From Candidatus Binatia bacterium (lineage in GTDB: Bacteria; Desulfobacterota; Binatia; UBA9968; JAJDTQ01), in the NCBI GenBank assembly GCA_963666515.2, contig OY762897.2, forward strand, positions 2,432,001 through 2,496,000: 64,000 nt of DNA, given 5' to 3'. The first letter of the stretch is position 1. Each line of letters starts with the position of its first letter. Below the pieces are notes generated by a model, which saw nothing but the letters and a program-made list of their open reading frames with translations, had not been told where the DNA came from and searched no databases. A program made the position numbers and the translations under genes. Of this stretch, positions 23,786-31,046 are shown one piece after another.

Positions 23786-24079
23786 TCAGTCGATGGCCTC
23801 ATACCGCTTGACCACGGCGCGTGCGCCCTGAAGCGCCCGGGCATGGTTCTGGATGGCCTTGTGGTCGTCACTATCGCGATAGCGGTCGATGTCTTCCTGG
23901 CTCTCCCACTCGGCGTAGGAGATGTACTCGCCCGGGGAATCCATGCACTTGAGCAACTGCTCGGACTTGCAGCCCTTCTGGGCGAGCATCCGCGGACCGC
24001 AATCCTCTTTCCAGATGCGCTCCGCTTCCGCGGCCTGGCCGGGATCGACGTTGACGTGGATCAGTCTGACGATGGACAT
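23786..24079 (-). CDS. antibiotic biosynthesis monooxygenase (ABM) family protein
   Basis: 97 aa; GCKSEQLL...EYISYAEWESQED..RYRDS; RBS GAGGAGG. Confidence 0.8.
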   Translation of the reverse strand: MSIVRLIHVNVDPGQAAEAERIWKEDCGPRMLAQKGCKSEQLLKCMDSPGEYISYAEWESQEDIDRYRDSDDHKAIQNHARALQGARAVVKRYEAID

Positions 24080-24161
24080 CTCAATCCTCCTCTTTGGGAT
24101 TCGTCTGTTACGGTTTATTTCAACTCTTCCCTCTACCGCAAGCCGTTTCGGTTTTCCGGTT

Positions 24162-24446
24162 TCAAGTCGCGAAACGGAGTTTGACCCCACACGCGGCCGA
24201 CACTTTGGCGAGTGTGTCGAGCCGTGGATTTCTCCGGCCGGACAGCGCGCGGGACAGTGCCACGCGATCCAGCTTGGCCTCACGCGCGAGTGCGGACACG
24301 CCGCCCTGCGCCTCGGCTACGTTGCGAAACGCCTTCATGAGCAGGCGCGGGTCGTCACCCATCTCCTCGATCGCTGCATTCAAATAAGCAACGATATCCT
24401 CGGGTGTCTTGAGATAATCGCTCGCCCTATGTTCTCTTACGGGCAT
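24162..24446 (-). CDS. putative addiction module antidote protein (HigA/HI1420-like, HTH)
   Basis: DYLKTPEDIVAYLNAA...NVAEAQGGVSALAREAKLDRVALSRALSGRRNPRLDTL. Confidence 0.88.
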   Translation of the reverse strand: MPVREHRASDYLKTPEDIVAYLNAAIEEMGDDPRLLMKAFRNVAEAQGGVSALAREAKLDRVALSRALSGRRNPRLDTLAKVSAACGVKLRFAT

Positions 24447-24762
24447 TTCGTTTCTCCTGTCGGTACGCTTTCCAACGGGCCTGCGCCGTGGCTATATCGC
24501 GGGCCTGCCGGTTCTTCGTTCCGCCACCCAGCAGAATCACGACCTCATCACCGTCACGACCGTAGTACAATCTGTATCCAGGACCAAAATCGACCCGAAG
24601 CTCGGAAACGCCCTTCCCCACGCTCCTGTGATCCCCGAAGTTGCCGAACTCGATTCGATCGATGCGCGTCTGCACACGAGCACGCGTTGCGGACGATTGC
24701 TGCCGGAGCCAAGTGTCGAAGTAGTCAACGCCGTCGTCGGAAACGTAGTGCAGTACGACCAC
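24427..24762 (-). CDS. RelE/ParE-family toxin (HigB/HI1419-like addiction module killer)
   Basis: RIDRIEFGNFGDHRSVGKGVSELRVDFGPGYRLYY, LLGGGTK.Q.RDI. Confidence 0.9.
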   Translation of the reverse strand: MVVLHYVSDDGVDYFDTWLRQQSSATRARVQTRIDRIEFGNFGDHRSVGKGVSELRVDFGPGYRLYYGRDGDEVVILLGGGTKNRQARDIATAQARWKAYRQEKRNARKRT

Positions 24763-24783
24763 ACCATTGTCGTAGTCGATCGG

Positions 24784-25470
24784 CTACAGTCCGTCAAGGA
24801 GTTCCTGTGCCGTGCGGAAGACGTCGTGGAACATGGGCACGGTGAGCTTGCCTGTGAAGGTGTTCTGCTGGCTGGGGTGGTAGGAGCCCAGGAGGGTCAA
24901 GCCGTTGTCGAAGTCATGGCGGCTTCCGTGGCCGAACTGCGGGCGCGGACGAGGAAGCGATTGACCTGCTTCGGCCGCCGCCTTGAGGTAGGAGTCGAAG
25001 GCGATCTTCCCCAACGCGATGACCACCCGGAGACGGCGGAGCAGCGCGAGGTCCCGGACCAGGTAGCCGCGGCATTTGTCGAACTCGTCCCGGGCGGGCT
25101 TGTTTTCGGGGGGCGCGCAGCGAACCGCGGCGGAGATGTAGCAGTCGGTGAGCTTCAGACCGTCGTTCCGGTCCACGGACTCGGCCTGATTGGCGAACCC
25201 GTGCTCGAACAGCGCTCGGTAGAGCCAGTCGCCGCTGCGGTCTCCGGTGAACATCCGACCGGTGCGGTTGCCGCCGTGGGCCGCGGGCGCCAAGCCTACG
25301 ATGAGGAGTTGCGCGGCACTATCGCCGAAGCCGGGAAGCGGCCGGCCCCAATACTTGTAGCCGTGGTATCGCCGCGGTGGATTGGCCGCGGTCTCGGCCC
25401 GCCAGTCCACCAGCCTCGGGCACTTTCGGCACCGGATCACCGCCCGGTTGACACGTGCGAAAGAGTCCAT
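24784..25470 (-). CDS. uracil-DNA glycosylase family 5 (UdgB-like)
   Basis: CRKCPRL, GLAPAAHGGNRTGRMFTGD, VRCAPPENKP, SYHPSQQNT. Confidence 0.93.
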   Translation of the reverse strand: MDSFARVNRAVIRCRKCPRLVDWRAETAANPPRRYHGYKYWGRPLPGFGDSAAQLLIVGLAPAAHGGNRTGRMFTGDRSGDWLYRALFEHGFANQAESVDRNDGLKLTDCYISAAVRCAPPENKPARDEFDKCRGYLVRDLALLRRLRVVIALGKIAFDSYLKAAAEAGQSLPRPRPQFGHGSRHDFDNGLTLLGSYHPSQQNTFTGKLTVPMFHDVFRTAQELLDGL

Positions 25471-25520
25471 TTCATAGGCATCGAGGCAGCAAGGTGAGGC
25501 CGAAGGGCTACGTTCTGCCA

Positions 25521-27644
25521 TCAACGCAGCCCCGAGGCTGACGCCGATGTCCCTCCCAATCCGAACAGGCCGAGAAGTTCTTCACGGGTCATCCGTACCG
25601 ACAAATCCAGCGACACATCGTCAACAAGCTCGTCAAACAGTGCCTGCTTGCGCTGAAGGATCTCGTCGATGCGTTCCTCGATGGTCCCCGTGCAGGAATA
25701 CTTGATGGCGTTCACCTTGACCGTCTGGCCGAAGCGATGGCTCCGGTCTTCGGCCTGTGTCTCTACGGCGGGGTTCCACCACCGGTCCAGGTGGAAGACG
25801 TAGGATGCCTCTTGCAGATTCAAGCCCAATCCGCCGACGCGCAGAGACAATATCAGCACCTTGTGCTCGTCGCGGACCTTGAATCGCTCGATGATCTCGG
25901 TCCTTTGCCGTTGAGGCATGCCACCCGTAATGGTGAGCGGCGCGAAGTCCTTCAGGTAGCTGGCCGCCGCACCTACGCCGGATGTGTCATTGACGTACTG
26001 GGAGAAGAGCAGCGCCTTGTGTCCCTGGGCCGCCAGTTGTTCCAGCCGGTCCTTGATGTCGTCCAGCTTGCTGGACTCGCCACTCTTGGGGTCAGCGTTG
26101 CATATCTGCTTCAGGCGAGTGATGAGCTCAAGGACATGCCGCACATCGACCTCAGCGCCCAGAGACTTCAGGTAGACGATTCCCTCGCGCTCGGCCTTGT
26201 CGTAGCTGTCTCGCTGCCCTGGATTCAGGTCGATGGTGACCGTGGTTATCTGCTTCGGGGGAAGGTCATCAAGGACGTCGCCCTTCTTGCGCCTGAGCTG
26301 CAACTCGCGGTGCCGCATCCGCAACTCTGCGCCAGGCCGGTACCGTTTGGGCGGATTCGACCCTTCATGGTCCACGAACTCCAGGATCGATGCCAATTCC
26401 TCCTCATGATTCTCGATGGGGGTGCCCGTCAACGCCCAGGAACGCATTCTTTGCAACCCTTTCAGCGCGTCGCTGGTGTCGTTGCGGTTCTTGATGCGTT
26501 GCGCCTCGTCGGCTACCACCACGTCCCAGATCCGGCGCCGCACCGGGGATTGCGCGTTGCCGTTGAAATCAGAACGCAGGGTGTCGTAGCTCACCAAGGT
26601 CACGTCCCTCTCGGCCGCCCACTGCCAGGAGCGGTCGGATGTCGGGCCACGAATGATGATGGCAGATAGTTCTGGCGCCCACTTCTCGAATTCACGCCGC
26701 CACTGGTCCAACAGAGCAGCCGGAGCCGCCACCAAGCATGACCGGGCCTCCCGGCGCGCCCGGAGGATACGCAAGGCGGCGATGGCCTGCAAGGTCTTGC
26801 CCAGACCCATGTCGTCCGCCAGCAGCAGTTGGCGATTGTCCAGCAAAGCCCGGACGCCCTCTTGCTGGAAGGGCATCAACGGTCCGGCCCATTCCAGTTG
26901 GATATCCTGGCCCGGTTTCCGGGGCGCGGCGAGCACCGCCCACAACCGCTGCGCCAGCGTCAACGCAGGTCCGAAGACCGGACGGGGCTCCTGGACAGTG
27001 TCCTCGTTTTCTGGAACACGGTTCGCCGAATACTCAGGGTGTTTGGGGAGTGAAGAAAGGCGAACGACGGTGGCCAGCCCGGGAAGCGCCGTCATGGCTT
27101 GAATCCGGTCATCGCCAAAGGCTTCGTCCAGAGCCTTGGCGACCCGTTCAAAGGGCTCGACGGGGTTGACCCCGTCCATTATTTCGCCGAGAAGCCGGCT
27201 GGCGGGAGACTCTTCGGCGCTGCACTCAGTTCCCCAAAGCCATTGGAATTTCCCGCGGCCTGTTCGGTACTCGGCTCCACTTCCCGTCCCGTCACCCGTA
27301 ACGCTGATACGGCAAAGGGGCTTCCCCAGCCGAATTTCGCCGGCAAACGCATCCTGTGGCACTTCGTCGGCCCGAGCGACAACCAATGTGGGTGACGATG
27401 TGGCGGCTCCAAACAGCGATTTGGCAAGGGATGACAGAACCTTTGGCTTGACGGTTCCTGGTTGTCCAAGGAGCTCATACGTCTCCGTACGAGTGAAGCA
27501 GAAGTCCAGCGGCTCACCGGCGGCGGTGGTCTGAAACAGCGCGGCACGCATGCCCTTGGCACTCTCCTCTTCGACGAACCGCAGCCAAGCGACGGCGCCC
27601 GAGCGGGTGTTCTCGTCACTGAGGTCGTCGAAAGGAATCGGCAA
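25521..27644 (-). CDS. SNF2-family helicase/ATPase with an uncharacterised N-terminal domain of about 180 aa
   Basis: LLADDMGLGKT, VVADEAQRIKN, LTGTPIEN, LLFSQY, GGLGLNLQEA, DRWWNPAVE.QAEDRSHRFGQ. Confidence 0.93.
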   Translation of the reverse strand: MPIPFDDLSDENTRSGAVAWLRFVEEESAKGMRAALFQTTAAGEPLDFCFTRTETYELLGQPGTVKPKVLSSLAKSLFGAATSSPTLVVARADEVPQDAFAGEIRLGKPLCRISVTGDGTGSGAEYRTGRGKFQWLWGTECSAEESPASRLLGEIMDGVNPVEPFERVAKALDEAFGDDRIQAMTALPGLATVVRLSSLPKHPEYSANRVPENEDTVQEPRPVFGPALTLAQRLWAVLAAPRKPGQDIQLEWAGPLMPFQQEGVRALLDNRQLLLADDMGLGKTLQAIAALRILRARREARSCLVAAPAALLDQWRREFEKWAPELSAIIIRGPTSDRSWQWAAERDVTLVSYDTLRSDFNGNAQSPVRRRIWDVVVADEAQRIKNRNDTSDALKGLQRMRSWALTGTPIENHEEELASILEFVDHEGSNPPKRYRPGAELRMRHRELQLRRKKGDVLDDLPPKQITTVTIDLNPGQRDSYDKAEREGIVYLKSLGAEVDVRHVLELITRLKQICNADPKSGESSKLDDIKDRLEQLAAQGHKALLFSQYVNDTSGVGAAASYLKDFAPLTITGGMPQRQRTEIIERFKVRDEHKVLILSLRVGGLGLNLQEASYVFHLDRWWNPAVETQAEDRSHRFGQTVKVNAIKYSCTGTIEERIDEILQRKQALFDELVDDVSLDLSVRMTREELLGLFGLGGTSASASGLR

Positions 27645-27679
27645 TGCAGCGTACCCTTGGTCACAGGGATGGCCGACTG

Positions 27680-28948
27680 CTACTCGGCATCGTCTTTGGC
27701 TTCCCGTTCAAGGTCGGCGTTCTCTTCGTAATCAGGCTGATACTCGTCTCCCACGATCTCCGGATTGGAACCAGGGTAGAACCTCAGCAAATCCCACTCG
27801 TTGATGGACGCGCGGACTTTGTAGCGCATCCGGTTCTGATACCCGGCACCCCCTGTCTCTCCTTGCAGCGCTGGCGCCTCCCAGCCGTATGCCGTGCTGT
27901 ATATCGTCCGCAGCTTCTCCACTGTCTCTCGAACGTCTTCATCGGTAGGTGACGACAATGGGATGCATTCGCGTTCCAGCAGGCGCATCCCTGTTGCGGC
28001 GCGCGCAGCGATTTCCTTGTACTTGCTGGCCTCCAACTTCGGCCCGACGTAGTCGCGGTCCTTCTTGGCGCCGTCGGGGCTGATGACGTGCGAAGCGAAG
28101 TCATCCGTCACGGTGCCGACGGCAACCAGCCCCGGATAGGGTTCGCCGATGGCTCTCCCCAACCAGCGGGTCAACTCGGCATAAGACCGGCCTCGTTGCA
28201 GGAGCGAATAGGAGCCGATCAGTTCGATCTCGTCCAGCAGCAACACCCAGCCCTTGTAACCGGCGCCCTTGATGAGCTCGGTGGCGAATCGCAGGCGCTG
28301 CGGAGGCAGTTCGACTGCTTTGGGGGCGCGGAAGGAGTAGTTCTGCAGTTGTCCGATTTGCCTCAGCCCGTCCTTTACCCTGGCCAGCCTTATCCGCTCT
28401 CCAGCCCAGAACGCCTCGATCTCGCCGTTGAGTTCAAGGTCGTTCGACCTCTCATGGACGATCAGGCTCGCCGGAAACATCTGACTGAGAAGCCCTTCGT
28501 GTGCGGTCTTGTTGGCCCACTGGAAAAATGCAGCGTAGGCAGTGGAACTCGGCTTGAGGGCCTGCCCCAACTCTTCGATCAGCCTCCCTCGACGTCCGGG
28601 CATCCGACCGTTCTCCACCGCCGACTTGAATACCTTGCCCAGGTCGTAGAGGGGCGTCTCCTTGCTGATGGCCACCTTGCTGCAAACGAAACCGCTGGAA
28701 AGGGCCTGATGTTGCAAATGGGTAAGCAAATGAGACTTGCCTGCCCCGAAATCACCGGAGACCAGCATCCCCAAAGCGCCTTCCGGAGGGCTCTCCACGT
28801 CCGTGATCCGGTTCAAGAGCTTCGTGAAATCGCCTTCCGCCCGTGGCTGGTTGCAGCCCAGGCGCTCCACCGCATCCCGGTTCGGAACGCCGTTACGGAG
28901 GGCTTCCAGCGCGCGCCGGCAGGACAGAACCAGATCTTCGGCAACCAC
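27680..28948 (-). CDS. DUF2791 / BrxD-like P-loop ATPase (intact motifs)
   Basis: ALEALRNGVP, Walker A GDFGAGKSH, SKETP, Walker B VLLLDEIE; RBS AAAGGGAGG. Confidence 0.85.
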   Translation of the reverse strand: MVAEDLVLSCRRALEALRNGVPNRDAVERLGCNQPRAEGDFTKLLNRITDVESPPEGALGMLVSGDFGAGKSHLLTHLQHQALSSGFVCSKVAISKETPLYDLGKVFKSAVENGRMPGRRGRLIEELGQALKPSSTAYAAFFQWANKTAHEGLLSQMFPASLIVHERSNDLELNGEIEAFWAGERIRLARVKDGLRQIGQLQNYSFRAPKAVELPPQRLRFATELIKGAGYKGWVLLLDEIELIGSYSLLQRGRSYAELTRWLGRAIGEPYPGLVAVGTVTDDFASHVISPDGAKKDRDYVGPKLEASKYKEIAARAATGMRLLERECIPLSSPTDEDVRETVEKLRTIYSTAYGWEAPALQGETGGAGYQNRMRYKVRASINEWDLLRFYPGSNPEIVGDEYQPDYEENADLEREAKDDAE

Positions 28949-28965
28949 GACGAGTGGCCTCCCTT

Positions 28966-29922
28966 TCAGGTCAATCGCACGAGAGACGCGACCGGATTGA
29001 CTAGGTTCCGGTCTCGAACGTCGTCCATGACCCTGGTGCGCAGAGCTTGGTAGATGCCGTAACCTCTTGAAGAGGTACTCTCATCGAGGAACTCCGTGTT
29101 GGTTGCCACCACGAGAAGCGTGCCTGACAAGCGGTCGATGTCGTCGATAAACTCGCGCAACAACTCGTAGTGATCCATGGTCATGGCCCGGGTGTAGTAC
29201 CTTTGGCCGTCCCTGGGGTTTCGCGCCAAAGTCACGCGGGAGTTGTCGAGCAGGATCACGGTTCCGAGGTGCCCGACGAAGCGAAACCAGTAGAGAGCGG
29301 ACTCGATGAAATACCGGGCAGTGGTTCGGTTGATGCCGGTGTAGATTGCAAAGGCGCGCACACTGCTCACCCGTGTGTTGGTCCCGGTCAGCCACTCCAG
29401 AACGGGCTGGCCGTCATACTCACCGCCGCTACGGGTGTTCTCCATGAGGCAGAGTTGAGTCATGGCCACTCGGAAATCCTTGGCCATCCTCGGGTTCTTG
29501 AAGACTTGGTTCTGTATCTTTGGCCTGATCGCATTGAGGACGAACTGTGGTTCGAGATGGTTGGCGGCCGCGATAGCAGCGAACAGGTTGTCGGAAGTGT
29601 CGGGGTTGACCCTGGCAACCTCATATTCGCTTTCGGCCAGCCGCAGGATCAGGCGGCGGGCCAAGCGCCGCCAATCAACCTGGACGGCGAGTCCGAAGAA
29701 GATGTCCTGCGGCATGTGGGCCCGCATGGTCGCGGCATCCAGCCTCGCGAGAACGTAGTCCAGCTTCTGACAGCGGTCTTTCAACTCCTGATAGAACTGC
29801 GATTTCCGTTCGTCGGAGGTGACCGCGAACTTTACGGAGGCCCCGCCGTTCCTGATGAAATCAGACAGATACTCGTCGTCGAGTTTCTGGAGCCAGTCTT
29901 GCAGACCGATGGTGTTCGACAT
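28966..29922 (-). CDS. DUF2791 / BrxD-like ATPase paralog with degenerate Walker motifs
   Basis: GGASVKFAVTSDERKSQF (P-loop glycines lost), VILLDN (Walker B Glu->Asn), YELLREFIDDID, YQALRTRV..NPVASLVRL. Confidence 0.75.
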   Translation of the reverse strand: MSNTIGLQDWLQKLDDEYLSDFIRNGGASVKFAVTSDERKSQFYQELKDRCQKLDYVLARLDAATMRAHMPQDIFFGLAVQVDWRRLARRLILRLAESEYEVARVNPDTSDNLFAAIAAANHLEPQFVLNAIRPKIQNQVFKNPRMAKDFRVAMTQLCLMENTRSGGEYDGQPVLEWLTGTNTRVSSVRAFAIYTGINRTTARYFIESALYWFRFVGHLGTVILLDNSRVTLARNPRDGQRYYTRAMTMDHYELLREFIDDIDRLSGTLLVVATNTEFLDESTSSRGYGIYQALRTRVMDDVRDRNLVNPVASLVRLT

Positions 29923-30725
29923 CAGCCGCCCTCGGTAAACCTGAGTCCGTAATACTCCACGTCGCGGCCATCCGGTCCGACGAAGGAGAACAGGCCCTTC
30001 GCACGCCGGGTCCCCGTGGATGACGGGAATGAGACGCTGGCACCCTTTTTCGTGCGCTTGGGGCCTTTCGTGTCCAGGATATAGAGGTCCCTCGCGAAGT
30101 CGGTACGGTCATACTCCCGGCTACTGCCCGGCAGGGAGGTGAATAACCTGTATACCCTCTCCAGGGGGACAACCCGCCCAGCGCGCTGCGCCAGGAGGTC
30201 ACGGTCCGAAACTTCGTCTCTCACGATGTCCGAATAGACGTTGTAAAGGGAATCGAGGAAAGCACCCGACTGGTAACGGCCGGGCTTTTCCTGGTTCTTC
30301 AGCAAGGCATCGGCCAAGTGGGACGGTCGGATCGACGAGACCTTCTTCTTGTCGATTCTGACCGCACGTTCAGCGGGAAGGACCCGTACAATGGAGGGAT
30401 GAGACACCAGCCGGTCGTCACGCTCGTGGATGTCCAGTCCTTTCTCGGAAGCGATGCGCCGCAACTCCGCCCGGTATCCGTCTTTAAGGTACTGCTCCTC
30501 TTCGTCTTCCTCAAACGGCCATGATTGGACCGCGTTGGTCACGGCCTGTCCCAACGAACCCAGCGCCGTATCGAGCCTATCCTGAAGCCTCTTTATGGCA
30601 GCGATGTTCCCCTCTCTGGATGCCTTCTCCAACTGTCTGGCCAGCTTGATCAACTCGCCGGCCGAAGCCAGGGTCGCGGCGGCGGCATTTTGGGTCTCAT
30701 CGAATGCGCGTTCAAAACTAGACAT
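29922..30725 (-). CDS. hypothetical protein (coiled-coil N-terminus, possible winged-helix C-terminus), first gene of the ATPase-ATPase-SNF2 operon
   Basis: 267 aa; TGATG coupling to the next gene; VPLERVYRLFTSLP...EYDRTDFARDLYILD. Confidence 0.8.
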   Translation of the reverse strand: MSSFERAFDETQNAAAATLASAGELIKLARQLEKASREGNIAAIKRLQDRLDTALGSLGQAVTNAVQSWPFEEDEEEQYLKDGYRAELRRIASEKGLDIHERDDRLVSHPSIVRVLPAERAVRIDKKKVSSIRPSHLADALLKNQEKPGRYQSGAFLDSLYNVYSDIVRDEVSDRDLLAQRAGRVVPLERVYRLFTSLPGSSREYDRTDFARDLYILDTKGPKRTKKGASVSFPSSTGTRRAKGLFSFVGPDGRDVEYYGLRFTEGG

Positions 30726-30962
30726 TCCATGCTCCGGGATATGATACAGTCGAGCCCGGTGGCGACGGGCCGTGTCGATGCGCAGTTAACAACGCAGGAA
30801 GAACCCGGTCAAGCCCTGACCAGGGCAACACGGATTCACAGATGATCTCGCGCAGGCGCGCAAGGGCGAAGACCGGATCCACGTCGAACGCTACCGGCGG
30901 CAGCCAACGGCTCAGGAAATTCCACAGGACTATCGCGTCGGACAGGACAGCCGAAATCGACC

Positions 30963-30992
30963 TTGACGCTCCTGAACACGTTTTGCTATACC
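30963..30992 (+). promoter_or_regulatory. putative sigma70 promoter of the sdh/frd cluster
   Basis: TTGACG-N18-TATACC with extended -10 TGn. Confidence 0.55.
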
Positions 30993-31046
30993 CCTCGAAA
31001 ACGCAGGAAATCTGCGTGCCTCTCGCCAAAGAAAAGGGGATCCCCA

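Follow-up and report, generated by a model that had tools for sequence, protein, structure and literature searches.

The 64,000-nucleotide stretch analysed here (the window; contig OY762897.2 of the Candidatus Binatia bacterium assembly GCA_963666515.2, positions 2,432,001 to 2,496,000) carries a compact cassette of four genes, which we call A, B, C and D in the order in which they would be transcribed. A encodes a protein of no named family, B and C encode P-loop ATPases resembling BrxD of the bacteriophage exclusion (BREX) systems, with the catalytic motifs lost in B and intact in C, and D encodes an SNF2-family ATPase. Across related loci the conserved core is A-B-C, and the SNF2 motor is a common but dispensable fourth part. 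Our working model, which we consider somewhat probable, is that of a stand-alone mobile A-B-C cassette with D as a frequent fourth gene, which recognises DNA and has an anti-phage or anti-plasmid role.

The four open reading frames (ORFs) are co-oriented and tightly packed, at the positions given by a first-pass annotation that had been made from the letters of the window alone (Table 1). The stop codon of A and the start codon of B overlap by one nucleotide in the junction TGATG, and by their coordinates B and C are separated by 17 nt and C and D by 35 nt, all as described in that annotation. Its claim of a non-host codon usage is also borne out: the GC content at third codon positions (GC3) is 0.73–0.77 in A–D, against 0.95 and 0.89 in two flanking housekeeping genes, and the overall GC content is 0.59–0.63 in the cassette region against about 0.66–0.70 in the window.

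One scan of species-representative genomes yielded 30 related loci, which by their record labels come from Binatia (8), ‘Thermodesulfobacteriota’ (1, which belongs to the window's own genus), Dehalococcoidia (9), Vicinamibacterales/Vicinamibacteria (10), Nitrospirales (1) and Gammaproteobacteria (1). In tblastn comparisons A, B and C were found in this order in all 30 loci, but D follows in 19 only, so that the expected conservation of all four genes holds for the first three and in part for the last. The 1-nt overlap of A and B is kept in 29 of the 30 loci and the gap between C and D measures at most 39 nt in 17 of 19, an arrangement far beyond chance. A 1.5-kb metagenome contig also encodes an A protein, 30% identical to that of the window, and the next gene is B-like (hhalign probability 99.3%); the third ORF of this contig gave no match to C.

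The 11 loci without D comprise nine from Vicinamibacterales/Vicinamibacteria, one from Dehalococcoidia and one from Nitrospirales, and none of them has a replacement helicase directly downstream. One Vicinamibacterales locus (L013) carries D at the syntenic site of its D-less relatives; D was therefore probably lost in the latter. In five D-less genomes a profile of the N-terminal region of D (the D head) matched nothing at E ≤ 0.001, and the same profile finds D in the genome of the window. The nine D-less Vicinamibacterales/Vicinamibacteria loci encode A, B and C without internal stops, with median ratios of nonsynonymous to synonymous substitution rates (dN/dS) of 0.22, 0.18 and 0.27, respectively (36 pairs for each gene, 35–36 of them usable). 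In 11 of 30 loci A-B-C persists intact and under purifying selection without D, which we therefore regard as dispensable, and the earlier proposal that the SNF2 protein is the effector of the system fails insofar as such an effector should be indispensable.

Both ATPases match the Pfam family BrxC_BrxD (PF10923, DUF2791) above its gathering cut-off of 22.2 bits (B: 43.3 bits, E-value 3e-11; C: 64.5 bits, E-value 1.2e-17), B over profile positions 148–332 only. Among the PADLOC models, BrxD is the best match of both (B 1.6e-09, C 5.5e-15). C further matches SngB of PADLOC weakly (1.1e-05), and its matches to BrxC models are marginal (0.0071 in PADLOC and 0.0042 in NCBIfam). Since C lies far below the equivalog cut-off of the NCBIfam model BREX_BrxD (56.6 bits against 350), which does not match B at all, we refer to the two proteins as BrxD-type rather than as BrxD. 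Their description as DUF2791/BrxD-like paralogues stands in that both pass PF10923, but the paralogy is apparent at the profile level only: BLASTP finds no alignment between B and C, and hhalign (E-value 0.0056, probability 6.6%) brings them together only around the Walker-B strand. By these sequence comparisons, the paralogy is ancient.

In C, the Walker A motif GxFGxGKS (G65–S72) and the Walker B residues D239–E240 are invariant in 24 sequences. The corresponding positions of B read GGxxxKF and LLDN in 25 sequences, with D226 invariant and N227 present in at least 90%. With both Walker A and Walker B lost, B very probably cannot hydrolyse ATP, and the notion of a duplicated ATPase forming an active and an inactive copy agrees with these motif states.

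The same genome holds other genes of this type. A second BrxD-type pair, located at a contig end (C1:4658800-4663240; L039 12834-17240, minus strand), consists of a dead-like protein of 292 amino acids (aa) and a live-like protein of 450 aa, followed by a DEAD/DEAH helicase that is read as two ORFs (348 and 379 aa) and may carry a frameshift; 219 nt of the contig remain upstream. A third BrxD-type locus (C1:2905650-2914920; L041 6660-15924, plus strand) encodes, in order, a YhcG/DUF1016 PD-(D/E)xK nuclease, a 290-aa protein, a 329-aa BrxD-like ATPase, an inserted DDE transposase, a 776-aa ResIII/DEAD helicase, a 306-aa protein of unknown type and a CAP12/Pycsar-type TIR protein. The 290-aa protein is weakly similar to A (hhalign E-value 0.0023, probability 12%). 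Finally, a defence-like patch at the contig start (C1:1-7400, L040) contains transposases, a 185-aa BrxD fragment, a TIR/SEFIR protein (153 aa) and an 831-aa N6/N4 DNA methylase.

Gene A, which defines the cassette, belongs to no Pfam, PADLOC or NCBIfam family (at E ≤ 0.01 for Pfam and PADLOC), and because Pfam gives it no family we agree with the first-pass annotation that the cassette has no TerB protein. A word-indexed search found 985 homologues at E ≤ 0.001, nearly all of about 265 aa and unnamed, and the family amounts to 611 representatives of clusters at 50% identity. No further copy was found in the genome at E ≤ 1 when its six frames were searched with a hidden Markov model. The AlphaFold2 model of A, built from a 73-sequence alignment, has a mean predicted local distance difference test score (pLDDT) of 93.8 and a predicted template modelling score (pTM) of 0.85, and Foldseek searches with it were empty at E ≤ 0.001 in PDB and BFVD. 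As the helical hairpin filled the VIA-align list for whole A, residues 73–267 were folded (pLDDT 92.2) and searched alone. Foldseek was again empty, and VIA-align returned Z-scores of 5–6.7, all below the value of 8 under which a match may mean a common arrangement only. For the last ∼115 residues many rows were winged-helix proteins (RNA polymerase III RPC62, ESCRT-II, ORC, kleisin/JetA-type, histone H1, forkhead), and the middle domain had frataxin/Med17-like rows. By its model, A is thus an adaptor without recognised fold relatives, and a winged-helix-like DNA-binding domain at its C-terminal end is a lead, not a finding. For the proposed sensing or binding of DNA by the first protein, this weak fold match is the one indication. 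We also considered A as a PD-(D/E)xK nuclease, given an ERD...IDxK pattern in close relatives, and rejected this candidate: the pattern is not invariant in the 73-sequence alignment and the nuclease fold was not recovered.

D is a complete SNF2 ATPase, as had been annotated. Both lobes match in Pfam (SNF2-rel_dom, PF00176, 4.9e-45; Helicase_C, 1.7e-20), and motifs I (DDMGLGKT), II (D379-E380-Q382, DEAQ) and VI (R634/H636/R637/G639/Q640) are invariant in 41 sequences. Its best PADLOC matches, which cover the motor only, are ZorD (3.1e-73) and DpdE (9.9e-65), and DrmD matches as well (3.4e-35). The BrxHI model matches at 8.4e-24 over the generic helicase C-lobe only, and SngC is not among the best 25 of the 45 PADLOC matches of D. 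In NCBIfam, the best matches of the motor include a regulator-type Snf2 (pilus_reg_Snf2, 8e-73), far below the cut-off of that model. Searches with 19 D heads (residues 1 to ∼250) gave no Pfam or PDB-sequence match, the atlas had no usable match to the head, and nine shorter homologues contain either no Pfam domain or PF00176 (SNF2) alone. An Endonuclease V (EndoV)-like head is a candidate that sequence and profile comparisons did not confirm: besides the empty searches of Pfam and PDB sequences, the EndoV family PF04493 had no match in the genome search, and hhalign of the D head with a 3-sequence EndoV alignment gave an E-value of 0.23.

The cassette is bracketed by genes for a 964-aa FAD/Fe-S oxidase and a 565-aa flavoprotein, which in five A-less congeners are separated by 1.6–25 kb. 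In two of these congeners (L049, L050) the site is empty, the interval holding only the ABM-domain, antitoxin, toxin and uracil-DNA glycosylase (UDG) genes. Window positions 24157–25479 and 30954–31045 align by blastn to the cassette-free congener L049 with 95 nt between them there, so that the 5.47 kb of positions 25480–30953 take the place of ∼95 nt of the empty site. We therefore conclude that the cassette is a discrete insertion and that the UDG gene, the toxin-antitoxin pair and the ABM-domain gene are native to the site. The insertion replaced the first codons of the UDG gene, so that translation of this gene now begins within the inserted DNA. In other congeners the neighbourhood holds different cargo, among it a ∼25-kb island with an integrase gene.

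Within the genus of the window, the cassette occurs in at least four different contexts, one of which is the riboflavin operon, and in 12 of 27 other species, and none of 95 genomes from the order's other genera has it. In a FastTree tree of A+B+C, of which we used the topology without inspecting supports, the Binatia copies group together, the Dehalococcoidia copies fall into three groups and the gammaproteobacterial copy is nested among those of Vicinamibacterales. Pfam, PADLOC and NCBIfam recognise no recombinase, transposase or replication gene inside the cassette. Neither direct nor inverted repeats are conspicuous at the flanks of the insert, and no tRNA adjoins it; a scan for promoters and terminators was uninformative. 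We conclude that the cassette is most likely stand-alone and horizontally mobile.

Some further sites are of note in this context. A cassette-free congener (L051, genome G014) has short stretches similar to window positions 30787–30917, upstream of A, at 86–93% identity, as well as a likeness to the last 20 nt of D, between its UDG and flavoprotein genes; judged by this similarity, they may be the scar of a lost cassette. Two Binatia loci (L007, L027) have the cassette inside the riboflavin operon, between ribD and ribE, and in the Nitrospirales locus (L025) it lies two genes from ribE; these riboflavin-gene sites may be a repeated target or a coincidence.

The start of the UDG gene overlaps the stop of D in a second TGATG, and we therefore considered it as a fifth cassette member. 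We rejected this, since neither the UDG gene nor the RelE gene was found in any of the 30 related loci by tblastn and the UDG gene is present at the empty site in congeners, which makes it a native neighbour.

Table 1. Positions in the window of the cassette genes, the inserted segment and the adjoining genes.
Feature	Position	Strand	Description
Gene A	29922-30725	minus	267 aa; family-defining protein, no known domain
Gene A, predicted domains			helical hairpin 1-70; small alpha/beta domain ~73-150; winged-helix-like C-terminal domain ~150-267 (residues)
Gene B	28966-29922	minus	318 aa; degenerate BrxD-type (ORC/Cdc6-like AAA+) protein, predicted catalytically dead
Gene C	27680-28948	minus	422 aa; BrxD-like P-loop ATPase, motifs intact
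Gene D	25521-27644	minus	707 aa; SNF2-family ATPase ~255-680, conserved N-terminal domain 1-~250
Inserted segment	25480-30953		~5.47 kb; D-C-B-A and the region upstream of A
UDG gene	24784-25524	minus	family-4/5-type uracil-DNA glycosylase (PF03167, 1.3e-27)
Toxin-antitoxin pair	24162-24762	minus	RelE/ParE-family toxin (TIGR02683 upstrm_HI1419, 5.2e-31) and HI1420-type helix-turn-helix antitoxin
ABM-domain gene	23786-24100		adjoins the toxin-antitoxin pair; also at the empty site in congeners

The first-pass annotation had further described the cassette as free of BREX genes. PglZ (PF08665) has no match in the whole genome, which is 98.35% complete, and we therefore do not regard the locus as a piece of a BREX system. 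BrxC, PglX and PglW have no PADLOC match at E ≤ 1e-8 among the six window proteins scanned, a genome-wide search for PglX not having been made. For the related loci our sample of flanks comprised 145 ORFs, the nearest three before and two after the cassette at each of 29 loci, leaving out one (L018) whose cassette genes were not recovered by gene picking. After removal of three ORFs that overlapped the cassette and of five large housekeeping proteins, 137 flanking proteins were scanned against PADLOC at E ≤ 1e-8, and no BREX model, including BrxC, PglX and PglW, matched any of them. Homologues of the cassette are thus not confined to complete BREX loci, which upholds the description of a stand-alone unit, and PADLOC 2.0 has no model for A or for the full system.

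In these scans, 13 of the 29 loci had some PADLOC match in their flanks. Setting aside generic matches (an HtrA-type protease, radical-SAM enzymes matching pVip at ∼1e-11 and a Ski2/DSHCT helicase), a credible defence neighbour lies within two to three genes in 8 of 29 loci, which is an association rather than an enrichment. These neighbours are an NsnA/GmrSD-type protein (3.9e-111, L011), PDC-S01 (L002, L004, L025), PDC-S29 (L004), HEC-09 (L008, L024), HEC-05 (L029) and a type II methyltransferase (L005). Directly beside many cassettes, Pfam recognises PIN/Phd/MazE toxin-antitoxin genes, transposases, Uma2 and DUF4143 ATPases; in many loci, toxin-antitoxin, transposase and GmrSD-type genes are no more than two genes away, and transposases adjoin the cassette in four (L003, L011, L028, L029). 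The expected location in defence islands is therefore seen in part: credible neighbours exist, but they are modest in number.

In our working model, A would be an adaptor whose coiled-coil hairpin and winged-helix-like domain supply a DNA-binding or bridging surface. Together with the dead B and the live C, both of ORC/Cdc6-type AAA+ character, it would form an ATP-switched complex that recognises DNA, in which B, without hydrolysing ATP, would have a sensing or regulatory function of the kind proposed for the inactive BrxB beside the active BrxC. This complex would recruit the SNF2 translocase D or load it onto target DNA, as proposed for the BrxD-BrxHI dyad, and D would then block replication or transcription of the invading DNA, or pass the DNA to a nuclease. 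Both precedents come from BREX. In the excerpts of PMC12839542 on which we draw, BrxD, an AAA+ ATPase of the ORC/Cdc6 type, is tightly linked in a gene dyad to the helicase BrxHI, which it may load or activate, and an inactive STAND/ORC-Cdc6 protein, BrxB, is paired with the active BrxC and proposed to be a sensor.

To this model, structure prediction adds weak support for complex formation by A, B and C. The prediction of A against B+C scored 0.36 (runs 0.36, 0.32 and 0.38) against 0.13 for the best control. Predictions that score in the range of 0.36 are wrong more often than right, except where the pairing was already likely. The runs agree in at least 87% of contacts, the partner pLDDT is at least 81, and a control with C replaced scored 0.00. 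Solved complexes reach the mark set for this score in 58 of 80 cases, mismatched pairs in 2 of 110; at scores of 0.60 or below, only 7 of those 80 complexes pass, together with both mismatches. Of the hetero-oligomer of active and inactive ATPases that had been proposed, the live/dead pair is therefore seen, but the oligomer is at most weakly indicated. The data thus show the anatomy of the cassette, the states of its motifs, its conservation, its insertion polymorphism and its patchy distribution; complex formation, DNA binding, loading of D and an anti-phage or anti-plasmid role are inferred.

A bolder reading, which we think possible but doubtful, is that A-B-C is a self-contained ATP-switched DNA sensor, made of a new-fold adaptor and dead and live ATPases of the ORC/Cdc6 type, and that it would be a loader of general use whose motors can be exchanged: an SNF2 protein in this cassette, a DEAD-type helicase in sister cassettes and none in cis in a third of the loci. 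If true, it would be a bacterial immune counterpart of the logic of origin recognition and helicase loading, and a new family of defence systems with members in many uncultured phyla.

Several observations weigh against a role in defence as we model it. Besides the low Z-scores of A and the low score of the predicted complex, there is the absence of D from 11 of 30 loci, which denies the proposed output step a general role. Pfam, PADLOC and NCBIfam recognise no domain of a nuclease, toxin or methyltransferase in A–D, and just two acidic residues, E26 and E94, are among the invariant positions of the D head. Defence neighbours are few, and the flanks consist mostly of housekeeping genes (PolA, metK and the rib operon, for example). 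Searches with A had no matches in 72,556 plasmid and 50,697 phage records, and none was confirmed in IMG/VR. In Vicinamibacterales, moreover, A-B-C is found in many species at one syntenic site and with host-like GC3 (0.88–0.94), a pattern that looks more like stable inheritance than like the typical turnover of defence islands. Some of these points suit an explanation that we nevertheless consider unlikely, namely a non-immune chromosomal module for DNA transactions, in which the ORC/Cdc6-like pair and its adaptor would act, with or without the SNF2 remodeller, in host DNA metabolism or regulation, the DNA being marked or remodelled, for example, at stalled forks, transcription-replication conflicts or nucleoid sites. 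The synteny and host-like codon usage of the ten Vicinamibacterales/Vicinamibacteria loci, the dN/dS values of 0.18–0.27 among the nine D-less ones, the lack of an effector nuclease or toxin domain, the housekeeping flanks and the similarity of the D motor to a regulator-type Snf2, far below cut-off as it is, would all follow. Such a module does not, however, account for the patchy distribution (12 of 27 congeners and none of 95 genomes of other genera), the clean presence/absence polymorphism at one site, the several contexts within one genus, the foreign GC3 in the window and the frequent toxin-antitoxin, insertion-sequence and restriction-type neighbours, which are traits of accessory genes.

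Mobility itself could be the purpose of the unit if it served a mobile element, be it in maintenance, in exclusion of competitors or as a component of a non-canonical integrative element by which the 5.5-kb unit would move. The discrete insertion without flanking housekeeping cargo, the transposases beside four of the related loci and the variable cargo that congeners hold in the same neighbourhood, including the ∼25-kb integrase-borne island, agree with this; yet the unit has no recombinase, transposase or replication gene, no standout flanking repeats and no adjacent tRNA, and A is missing from the plasmid and phage records and unconfirmed in IMG/VR, which makes this explanation improbable. 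Least probable, and largely refuted, is a decayed fragment of a type 2 or type 6 BREX locus or of a Shango-like locus. It could draw on the best matches of B and C to BrxD models, on the weak match of C to SngB and on the two further BrxD-type loci of the same genome, which have other helicases and are in some cases cut by insertion sequences. Against decay stand the intact three- or four-gene unit in 30 of 30 loci, the lack of internal stops and the purifying selection seen in the nine D-less Vicinamibacterales/Vicinamibacteria loci, the absence of PglZ from the genome and of BREX matches from the 137 flanking proteins, the score of C far below the BrxD equivalog cut-off, and the identity of its partners, as A is not TerB-like by Pfam and D is an SNF2 protein, not a Ski2-like helicase as BrxHI is in the portions of PMC12839542 consulted. 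We therefore retain the mobile, DNA-recognising defence cassette as our working model.

No PADLOC 2.0, Pfam or NCBIfam model names A or the cassette, and we found no published description of it in the Creative Commons-licensed full text of PubMed Central and in bioRxiv. Should it protect against phages or plasmids, it would be a widespread addition to the catalogue of defence systems, A alone accounting for 611 clusters at 50% identity. It would also offer a compact setting in which to study the function of BrxD-type ATPases, the BrxD-helicase dyad of type 2 BREX being uncharacterised, and the natural ABC-only and ABCD forms, together with the dead/live ATPase pair, provide ready-made genetic contrasts.

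Among known systems, the motor of D aligns with Zorya ZorD, Dpd DpdE and DISARM DrmD, in this order of significance. D lacks, however, the N-terminal regions of these proteins as well as an Mrr or other nuclease domain (Pfam), and A, B and C match none of their partners ZorABC, DrmABC and DpdA-K in PADLOC.

Shango consists of the TerB-like SngA, the DUF2791 ATPase SngB and the helicase SngC. It resembles the cassette in being a small stand-alone system that combines a DUF2791/BrxD-type ATPase with a helicase, and C has its weak match to SngB. In contrast to Shango, the cassette has an A protein without a TerB domain and two ATPase paralogues instead of one. The E-value of C is 1.1e-05 for SngB and 5.5e-15 for BrxD. 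A more distant likeness is to the ORC/Cdc6 AAA+ subunits of archaea and eukaryotes, some of them inert, which bind DNA by winged-helix domains and load a ring helicase. By analogy with these, the cassette would differ in that its motor is an SNF2 translocase of the monomeric type and in that A would contribute the winged-helix-like domain in trans.

The closest parallels are found in BREX. As in the BrxD-BrxHI dyad of type 2 BREX (Pgl), a BrxD-type ORC/Cdc6 AAA+ ATPase is tightly linked to a superfamily 2 helicase (PMC12839542, in the excerpts used here). Yet the cassette comes without PglX, PglZ, BrxC and PglW (PglZ genome-wide, the others in the window and the flanks), its ATPase is doubled into a live and a dead copy, its helicase is of the SNF2 type rather than Ski2/Lhr-like, it has the additional conserved protein A, and C remains far below the BrxD equivalog cut-off. 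The pairing of a Walker-degenerate AAA+ protein with an active one recalls BrxB and BrxC of type 1 BREX, again as far as the excerpted text of PMC12839542 describes them, but B and C are of the BrxD-type profile and have no methylase or phosphatase partner. In this comparison, the cassette would best be described as a module of BrxD-type ATPase plus helicase.

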